NCBI GenBank assembly: GCA_951406725.2 | Contig: OX597815.1 | Location: forward strand, 164,424,001 to 164,488,000 | Length of the DNA: 64,000 nt | Source of the DNA: Octopus vulgaris | Taxonomy: Eukaryota | Direction of reading: 5' to 3' | Shown: positions 1,719 to 62,795 of the stretch, piece by piece | Numbering within the stretch: position 1 is the stretch's first letter | Layout: each line of letters starts with the position of its first letter | The notes under the pieces: generated by a model | Databases searched by the model: none | Told to the model about the DNA's origin: nothing | Seen by the model: only the letters and a program-made list of their open reading frames with translations | Translations under genes and position numbers: made by a program

Positions 1719-62795
<61,077 letters not shown>

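Follow-up and report, generated by a model that had tools for sequence, protein, structure and literature searches.

The question raised by this locus is what remains of a complement protein once its defining chemistry has been lost. The window (the whole stretch of DNA analysed, 64,000 nucleotides from Octopus vulgaris) was originally predicted to carry an otherwise intact C3-like gene in which the thioester motif GCGEQ is replaced by GSGEQ. The motif alone turns out to be ordinary; what is notable is an architecture without MG4 and without the anaphylatoxin domain (ANA), combined with a constraint focused on the TED. The gene very probably encodes a functional thioester-less C3 paralogue, called the derived protein below, as opposed to the canonical coleoid C3.

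A direct reading of the minus strand gives GGA TCT GGA GAA CAA, or GSGEQ, at 44918-44932, in an 11-residue protein context with the Ser codon at 44927-44929, just as predicted. This is the only G.GEQ match across the six frames of the window, in which C[GA]EQ has no match. DNA run X14, from a different sample and study from the possible source run, yields one contig over 44828-45100 with 0 differences from the window. Because this independent run agrees with the window, the TCT codon is real, and an assembly error and a rare allele are both refuted. The GCGEQ thioester of a covalent-opsonin C3 is missing from all eight records of the protein, which come from four octopod species (Octopus vulgaris, O. 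sinensis, O. bimaculoides and Argonauta hians) and all read SYGSGEQ and have a Tyr where the catalytic His would be. The motif and the other sites discussed below are as follows.

44918..44932, minus strand: dead thioester motif GSGEQ; SYGSGEQ here, PYGCGEQ in the canonical C3 of the same species
44927..44929, minus strand: Ser codon TCT replacing the thioester Cys; unchanged in DNA run X14
38933..38935, minus strand: Tyr at the catalytic His position; LIIYKEMM here, PVIHxEMM in coleoid C3; counted back from the end of exon 11
57706..57717, minus strand: basic site KKKR where the beta and alpha chains join; counted from the start of exon 3, cleavage presumed

The motifs GSGEQ or GSGEE also occur in several unrelated TEPs (P0123, P0176, P0229, P0235, P0249, P0288 and others), some of them named as fish or turtle, and therefore Cys-to-Ser replacement is recurrent at the thioester site.

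The changes in the derived protein extend well beyond the motif. The catalytic His that lies about 110 residues downstream of the thioester is Tyr instead. Several residues invariant in four coleoid C3s and in a hemichordate and a frog C3 differ in every one of the three derived rows, among them P>S830, C>S833, P>L843, H>Y945 and, within MG8, M>L1226, Y>I1266 and Y>N1302. An adjacent Tyr has become Leu, Leu and Trp in the derived rows. By spacing, the MG8 Met, Tyr and adjacent Tyr match the human C3 pocket residues Met1378, Tyr1425 and Tyr1460; the literature search returned no paper for these residue numbers, and none on the conformations of Cys>Ser mutants. Aromatic residues of MG8 shield the thioester (PMC9156758; this and all other papers are cited here from excerpts). 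The original prediction also hinted at a single recent base change, and this did not survive: in both Octopus and Argonauta the Ser is fixed, and so are Pro>Ser, His>Tyr and the MG8-pocket changes. Read from the sequences, the loss is old and complete, with the whole apparatus decayed and more than one base changed.

The exons were found by tblastn with three database relatives labelled CD109-like, from Argonauta hians, O. bimaculoides and O. sinensis, which a search with the motif exon had returned. This gave 20 coding segments, spliced at AG/GT ends.

62652..62795, minus strand: exon 1 in the window, first half of MG6
61145..61192, minus strand: exon 2, LNK shortened, GCSPGGG motif and both Cys gone
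57628..57750, minus strand: exon 3, LNK end, basic site, Cys-free remnant at the anaphylatoxin place
54538..54592, minus strand: exon 4, Cys-free linker replacing ANA/alpha'-NT
53272..53317, minus strand: exon 5, linker end and start of the second half of MG6
51024..51252, minus strand: exon 6, second half of MG6 and start of MG7, interchain Cys of FCVAE retained
48846..49061, minus strand: exon 7, MG7, alternative donor at 48831 (+5 codons)
46621..46705, minus strand: exon 8, first CUB half as a polar low-complexity remnant
44812..45000, minus strand: exon 9, TED start, GSGEQ
41521..41596, minus strand: exon 10, TED
38921..39077, minus strand: exon 11, TED, His>Tyr site
34207..34284, minus strand: exon 12, TED
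28795..28969, minus strand: exon 13, TED
19239..19411, minus strand: exon 14, TED
15541..15708, minus strand: exon 15, TED end and second CUB half, model confidence low
11950..12089, minus strand: exon 16, CUB end and MG8 start
9610..9678, minus strand: exon 17, MG8
7242..7329, minus strand: exon 18, MG8, pocket Met to Leu
5375..5443, minus strand: exon 19, MG8, pocket Tyr to Ile
1719..1824, minus strand: exon 20, MG8, YxYY motif to YELN; the gene runs on past position 1

All 20 exons have AG/GT ends and matching phases, and the spliced 2434 nt read as 811 codons with 0 stops. The 811 aligned residues are all identical to O. vulgaris CAI9718465-7, which is named 'complement component 3'; identity of this product is 98.8% to O. 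sinensis, 92.3% to O. bimaculoides and 58.4% to Argonauta. The window covers approximately residues 489-1304 of a protein of 1469-1474 aa, and both gene ends lie outside it. Exon 7 has GT donors at 48831 and 48846, which put the five residues VNTPK in or out at the start of the degenerate CUB linker, and both forms are present among database isoforms.

The description of the gene as otherwise intact therefore holds for its exons, which are open and in phase, but not for the protein, in which C3 domains are deleted or degenerate. Compared with the canonical O. vulgaris C3, MG4 is reduced from 106 residues to 40, LNK from 62 to 39 with both Cys gone, ANA plus alpha'-NT from 84 to 45 with six Cys reduced to none (45-66 residues and 0 Cys across the derived proteins), the first half of CUB from 70 to 35, and MG8 from 156 to 137. 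From MG3 to MG5 the three derived rows span 69-93 residues, versus 160-194 in the other 69 of 72. MG4, for which the derived protein has no Pfam match, is missing from none of the 69 other aligned C3/C4/C5-class proteins; its region lies outside the window, and its loss is read from gene models of four species, the Argonauta model being partial. The LNK+ANA span is 124-145 residues in the derived proteins, 126 in two thioester-less gastropod rows and at least 186 in the other 55 of 60. The ANA of canonical coleoid C3 is itself short and is missed by Pfam. The CUB spans are only slightly short (84 versus at least 96, and 79 versus 79-90), and the reading that CUB has broken down comes from divergence and low pLDDT in an alignment with few true orthologues: the 35-residue first half is identical at 8/35 positions with pLDDT <50, and the second half is 60% identical with pLDDT of about 42-56. 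The linker that took the place of ANA is rich in Pro, Ser and Thr, unstructured in the model and identical at 14/45 positions. A search of the introns for hidden ANA, LNK, alpha'-NT or CUB exons gave nothing significant; the positive controls (TED start and MG7) were recovered, and sensitivity is low for diverged pieces, the second CUB half that is present having also been missed.

An AlphaFold model of the N-terminal 420 residues of the O. bimaculoides protein (pLDDT 83) consists of MG1-MG2-MG3, a low-confidence stretch at 315-339 (25 residues) and MG5, and Foldseek matches it best to C5/C3 beta chains, in alignments of about 550 columns. In the model of the C-terminal 1085 residues from O. 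sinensis, MG5-7, TED, MG8 and C345C are confident, and pLDDT falls below 50 in the first half of CUB, in parts of its second half and in what remains of ANA. Domain packing is unreliable in this model (pTM 0.45), which Foldseek matched to no solved state (TM at most 0.46), leaving native and activated forms not told apart. Overall, the Foldseek matches of the derived protein are C3/C4/C5/CD109/TEP1, and Pfam finds the features of the TEP/A2M superfamily (TED at E 1e-67, A2M, A2M_BRD, MG2, MG3 and A2M_recep). The N-terminus is hydrophobic from the second Met. The basic site between beta and alpha chains reads KKKR in O. vulgaris, KKRR in O. bimaculoides and RKRR in Argonauta, with a strict RxxR only in Argonauta, and C485 and C659, which correspond to the Cys pair linking the chains in C3, are retained and would presumably pair. 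The anchor+C345C region retains 9/9 Cys at 28% identity to canonical C3, and C345C is folded in the model; its Pfam NTR match misses the cut-off in Argonauta (E 0.033) and is absent in Octopus, and canonical coleoid C3 is borderline too. The O. bimaculoides A2M (P0045, XP_014770566) also has a Cys-containing C-terminal extension, with the UniRef name NTR domain, and therefore a C345C-like tail alone is not diagnostic of C3 in cephalopods. In sum, MG1-3, MG5-8, TED and a C345C-type tail remain; the deletions have taken ANA, the disulphide loop of LNK and the greater part of MG4, and the CUB halves are divergent.

The descent of the protein was approached with searches and trees. In a HMMER search of 1.84 billion representatives, the Argonauta orthologue ranked first and the Argonauta canonical C3 second (E 2e-133), with the next natural TEPs at E 1e-78. 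The third rank was taken by P0111 (MetaClust UPI0000032FDB), an apparently engineered sequence of three tandem C3d units with glycine-serine linkers and GSGEQ. Reciprocal scoring of 384 proteins gave a derived group of the 8 octopod records and a weak match, P0105, whose Pfam profile is that of a bacterial A2M. In O. vulgaris, O. sinensis, O. bimaculoides, Argonauta, Euprymna and Sepia there is a canonical C3 with GCGEQ, His, ANA and MG4. Four trees pair the derived clade with coleoid C3 as its sister: SH-aLRT is 100 in a 46-row tree, 100 under a mixture model in a quick tree and 99 in a third tree, and support is 99/98 when the TED is used alone with the motif and His columns removed. Coleoid canonical C3s (P0268, P0110, P0354, P0270) are long-branched and stand apart from other mollusc C3s in the trees.

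AU tests on 16 rows rejected a group of the derived protein and the gastropod C3s that lack a thioester (p 1.5e-5), as well as a pairing with octopod C3 only, which would place the duplication inside Octopoda (p 2e-8). Membership in CD109/iTEP, the NCBI label of several records, was rejected as well (p 2.4e-4), and the protein has no GPI-type tail; a separate O. vulgaris CD109 exists (A0A6P7SI10). These tests used LG+G4 and carry a long-branch caveat, and their hypotheses, drawn from the original prediction and the literature, were run after the trees had been seen. The trees give no orthology with vertebrate C5, which falls inside the vertebrate clade. The proposed TEP phylogeny with C3, C5, A2M and CD109/iTEP thus places the protein with C3/C4/C5, apart from A2M and CD109/iTEP, and bears out the prediction of a C3-like class rather than MCR or CD109: the protein is sister to coleoid C3, and LDLa and a transmembrane tail are absent. 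The trees were built without MCR rows, the 348 proteins gathered holding no MCR by LDLa pattern match. As far as descent can be judged from these sequences, the thioester-less protein belongs to the C3 clade as sister to canonical coleoid C3, and its thioester appears to have been lost independently of C5, as predicted, and of the snail C3s. Taken at face value, the trees would put the duplication before the octopus/squid split; no squid or cuttlefish orthologue was found among the best 150 of 3115 matches, nor among the 108 matches of a further search.

Conservation is distributed unevenly along the derived protein. Between Octopus and Argonauta, the TED is identical at 229/293 positions (78%) versus 329/639 (51%) for the other folded domains (Fisher p 4e-15), whereas the corresponding values for canonical C3 are 244/312 (78%) and 561/742 (76%; p 0.38). 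Between O. vulgaris and O. bimaculoides, TED and other domains are 97% and 89% identical in the derived protein (p 8e-6), versus 97% and 94% in canonical C3. In the TED tree, the crown branches of the two proteins are alike (derived 0.12/0.15, canonical 0.12/0.14) and the derived stem is 0.95 versus 0.53, a history that reads as a burst of change followed by normal constraint. Residues missing from all five coleoid C3s are carried by 100 of 225 invariant TED columns; such newly fixed columns are no denser there than elsewhere (143/308). Between octopus and bobtail squid, canonical C3 also has a more conserved TED (68% versus 55% in other domains), and therefore helical-core constraint may explain part of the derived contrast. 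Purifying selection at the protein level is supported by these comparisons, and the constraint appears to be concentrated on the TED, where it is as tight as in the canonical C3 TED.

Comparison with known systems shows what is shared and what is peculiar. The canonical coleoid C3s of O. vulgaris (CAI9738204.1), Argonauta (GAB1607029.1) and Euprymna scolopes (ACF04700.1) form the sister clade, at about 30% identity, and share the MG/TED/C345C order and the Cys pattern outside LNK and ANA. They differ in having GCGEQ, the His, an ANA with 6 Cys, LNK with GCSPGGG, a full MG4, a CUB that is 91-92% identical between Octopus and Argonauta, and a length of 1678 aa versus 1469-1474 aa; the canonical gene is also on a different contig (46.97 Mb versus 215.6 Mb). 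The gastropod thioester-less C3s (BgC3-1/BgC3-3, Duval 2020, PMC7016707; 'type I', Peng 2022, PMC8960428) are likewise C3 duplicates without thioester or ANA. They were represented by Bulinus P0380 and P0304, whose orthology to BgC3-1/-3 is presumed from their features, and their LNK+ANA span of 126 residues is close to the octopod 124. However, their origin is independent by the AU test above, they keep MG4, the His is kept in P0313 (an isoform of P0380), and their alpha-beta site is reported lost (PMC7016707, PMC8960428), whereas the octopod protein appears to keep it.

Vertebrate C5 and razor clam ScoC3-like-3 (GCVSQ; PMC8960428) also lost the thioester after duplication in the C3 family and retain a two-chain design, but both keep an anaphylatoxin and are activated by cleavage; the octopod protein has neither. 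The suggested analogy with C5 does not extend beyond the thioester, since C5 keeps MG4 and CUB where the octopod protein has lost most of MG4 and has divergent CUB halves, and the fetched C5 records have Pfam matches to MG4 (PF17789) and mostly to anaphylatoxin (PF01821), of which the octopod protein has neither. BgTEP3 and tsetse TEP2 (PMC7016707) share its Cys>Ser with Gln kept, but they are of the iTEP/CD109 class, without C345C and on an unrelated branch. MCR/TEP6 is a thioester-less TEP with non-covalent action, but MCR has LDLa and a C-terminal transmembrane helix. The octopod protein has no Pfam match to LDLa and no Cys in the ANA/bait-place region, and as to a transmembrane or GPI tail, its maximal hydropathy in the last 80 residues is 0.2-0.5 versus about 1.8-1.9 in two CD109/TEP rows.

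In iC3b, ANA and a live thioester are absent and CUB is interrupted. The octopod protein, whose CUB may have broken down, is like iC3b/C3dg on these counts, in design only, and in a TED that would serve as a non-covalent receptor ligand (receptor roles, PMC7922070). However, iC3b and C3dg are transient cleavage products, covalently fixed to their targets and with MG4 kept, whereas the octopod protein is gene-encoded and free.

These features suggest how the protein might act. In vertebrate C3, ANA is a safety catch whose removal frees CUB and TED to swing out (10.1101/056457), and substrate and convertase are thought to dock via MG4/MG5 (PMC7922070). The octopod protein would be secreted and cut at its basic site into disulphide-linked beta and alpha chains. 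With ANA, MG4, the thioester and the MG8 pocket lost and its CUB apparently degenerate, it should have neither the C3 switch nor covalent attachment: no anaphylatoxin would be released, and the MG4/MG5 surface for convertase docking would be missing. Activation may then not be needed, a re-specified TED on a loose tether acting as a non-covalent binding module, in a molecule roughly like a gene-encoded iC3b/C3d. The TED is probably the binding end of the protein, and the overall mechanism, a secreted C3 duplicate off the C3 switch that binds non-covalently through its TED, is slightly favoured. Its most likely setting would be haemolymph immunity, where a receptor on haemocytes or the surface of a microbe might have it as ligand; a role in constitutive non-covalent immune tagging or receptor engagement is conceivable at somewhat less than even chances. 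More tentative still, and on balance doubtful, is 'pre-processed' complement: a C3 minus one MG-ring domain, ANA, CUB arm and thioester, from a duplication older than the octopus/squid split and either missed in squids or lost there, with a free scaffold that presents a newly specified TED as a constitutive iC3b/C3d-equivalent ligand. If true, the MG ring would be dispensable and the protein would offer a handle on an invertebrate C3d-type receptor.

Other readings of the same features have to be weighed against non-covalent TED binding. Every cascade-specific part is gone, which would also suit a structural or secretory role outside immunity (in matrix, in an epithelial junction, or in the secretion of an egg or gland), comparable to the developmental roles reported for Drosophila Mcr, with the TED kept for a structural partner; Duval et al. 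note such roles for thioester-less TEPs (PMC7016707). With no transmembrane or GPI tail, no LDLa and no tissue link, such a role seems unlikely. A decoy or regulator of canonical octopus C3, competing for receptors, regulators or proteases or forming a stable C3b-like platform, has its potential target in the same species and would make use of the retained MG6-MG8 and C345C-type tail with all nine anchor+C345C Cys. However, MG4 and alpha'-NT, which vertebrates use in convertase function, are gone, the TED at 41% identity to the canonical TED looks re-specified rather than mimicked, and the literature searched held no evidence of an octopus factor B, so that this reading is quite unlikely.

There is only a slim chance of a reversion to an A2M/iTEP-like protease sensor, in which the Pro/Ser/Thr-rich linker is a bait and cleavage exposes the TED non-covalently. 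The linker is indeed unstructured and variable, like bait regions, and a Cys-less ovostatin is said to retain inhibitor activity (PMC7016707), but the basic processing site precedes this linker and would leave it as a free chain end, the MG8 pocket responsible for the closed state has decayed, and the octopus has its own A2M (P0045) and CD109. The invariance of GSGEQN across the four species might be taken as a sign that Ser and Gln form an oxygen ester or lactone that works like the thioester, only more slowly; with the neighbouring residues equally conserved (26/30) and the catalytic His, Pro and MG8 pocket all gone, this is very improbable. As for an assembly error, rare allele or decaying pseudogene, 12 presumed-RNA runs from 3 studies contain all 17 sampled words, and the 3 that were assembled gave 0 contigs on 44700-45100. 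This speaks neither for nor against expression, and the missing contig is the point in favour of an artefact; the identity of run X14, the GSGEQ shared by four species, the 811 open codons and a conservation patterned by domain leave that explanation practically no chance.

The motif itself is less surprising than originally supposed. The loss is real, but thioester loss in duplicated invertebrate C3s has already been called frequent (PMC8960428, PMC7016707): an iTEP with Cys>Ser and snail C3s that have neither thioester nor ANA are described (Duval 2020, PMC7016707), and C3-like genes have lost the thioester independently many times (Peng 2022, PMC8960428). For molluscs, both Cys>Ser and the loss of a thioester following C3 duplication are thus already in print, and the anaphylatoxin loss is convergent with that of snails. 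The octopod gene, the MG4 loss and the TED-focused constraint were not found in print. The excerpts of Peng 2022 (PMC8960428) give only canonical C3 for three cephalopods, those of PMC4199593 and PMC4361686 mention cephalopod C3/CD109 with the octopod paralogue absent, and a search by accession or topic, which covered literature outside subscription journals, returned no description of it; supplements may carry it under a CD109-like label. The excerpted supplements of the ink and skin-mucus proteomes (PMC10142993, PMC10138644) held no trace of it by peptide or name search, and the CD109 row in the ink proteome, one of many CD109 rows, is a different gene. The RefSeq name CD109-like calls for correction: O. 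vulgaris has two 'complement component 3' genes, one alone able to opsonise covalently. With selection focused on a domain that has lost its textbook chemistry, the protein is a natural experiment on a thioester-free TED, and the constraint points to a conserved octopus partner.

Repeats and remnants of retroelements were also seen in the window; Rfam gave no match. In intron 11, at 36038-38026 on the minus strand, there is a near-complete non-LTR retrotransposon ORF (RVT_1 E 1.5e-22, with zf-RVT matches) in three in-frame pieces split by single stops, and a short fragment near 16088-16510, also on the minus strand, has the same C-terminal end. Two alike LINE-like remnant frames lie on the plus strand at 42214-42744, where Pfam gave no match, and at 1270-1512; both close with the same stretch, ending in EIRQ. 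Intron 13 holds dispersed or tandem repeat copies of about 150-300 bases at 27456-28623, seen as recurring translations.
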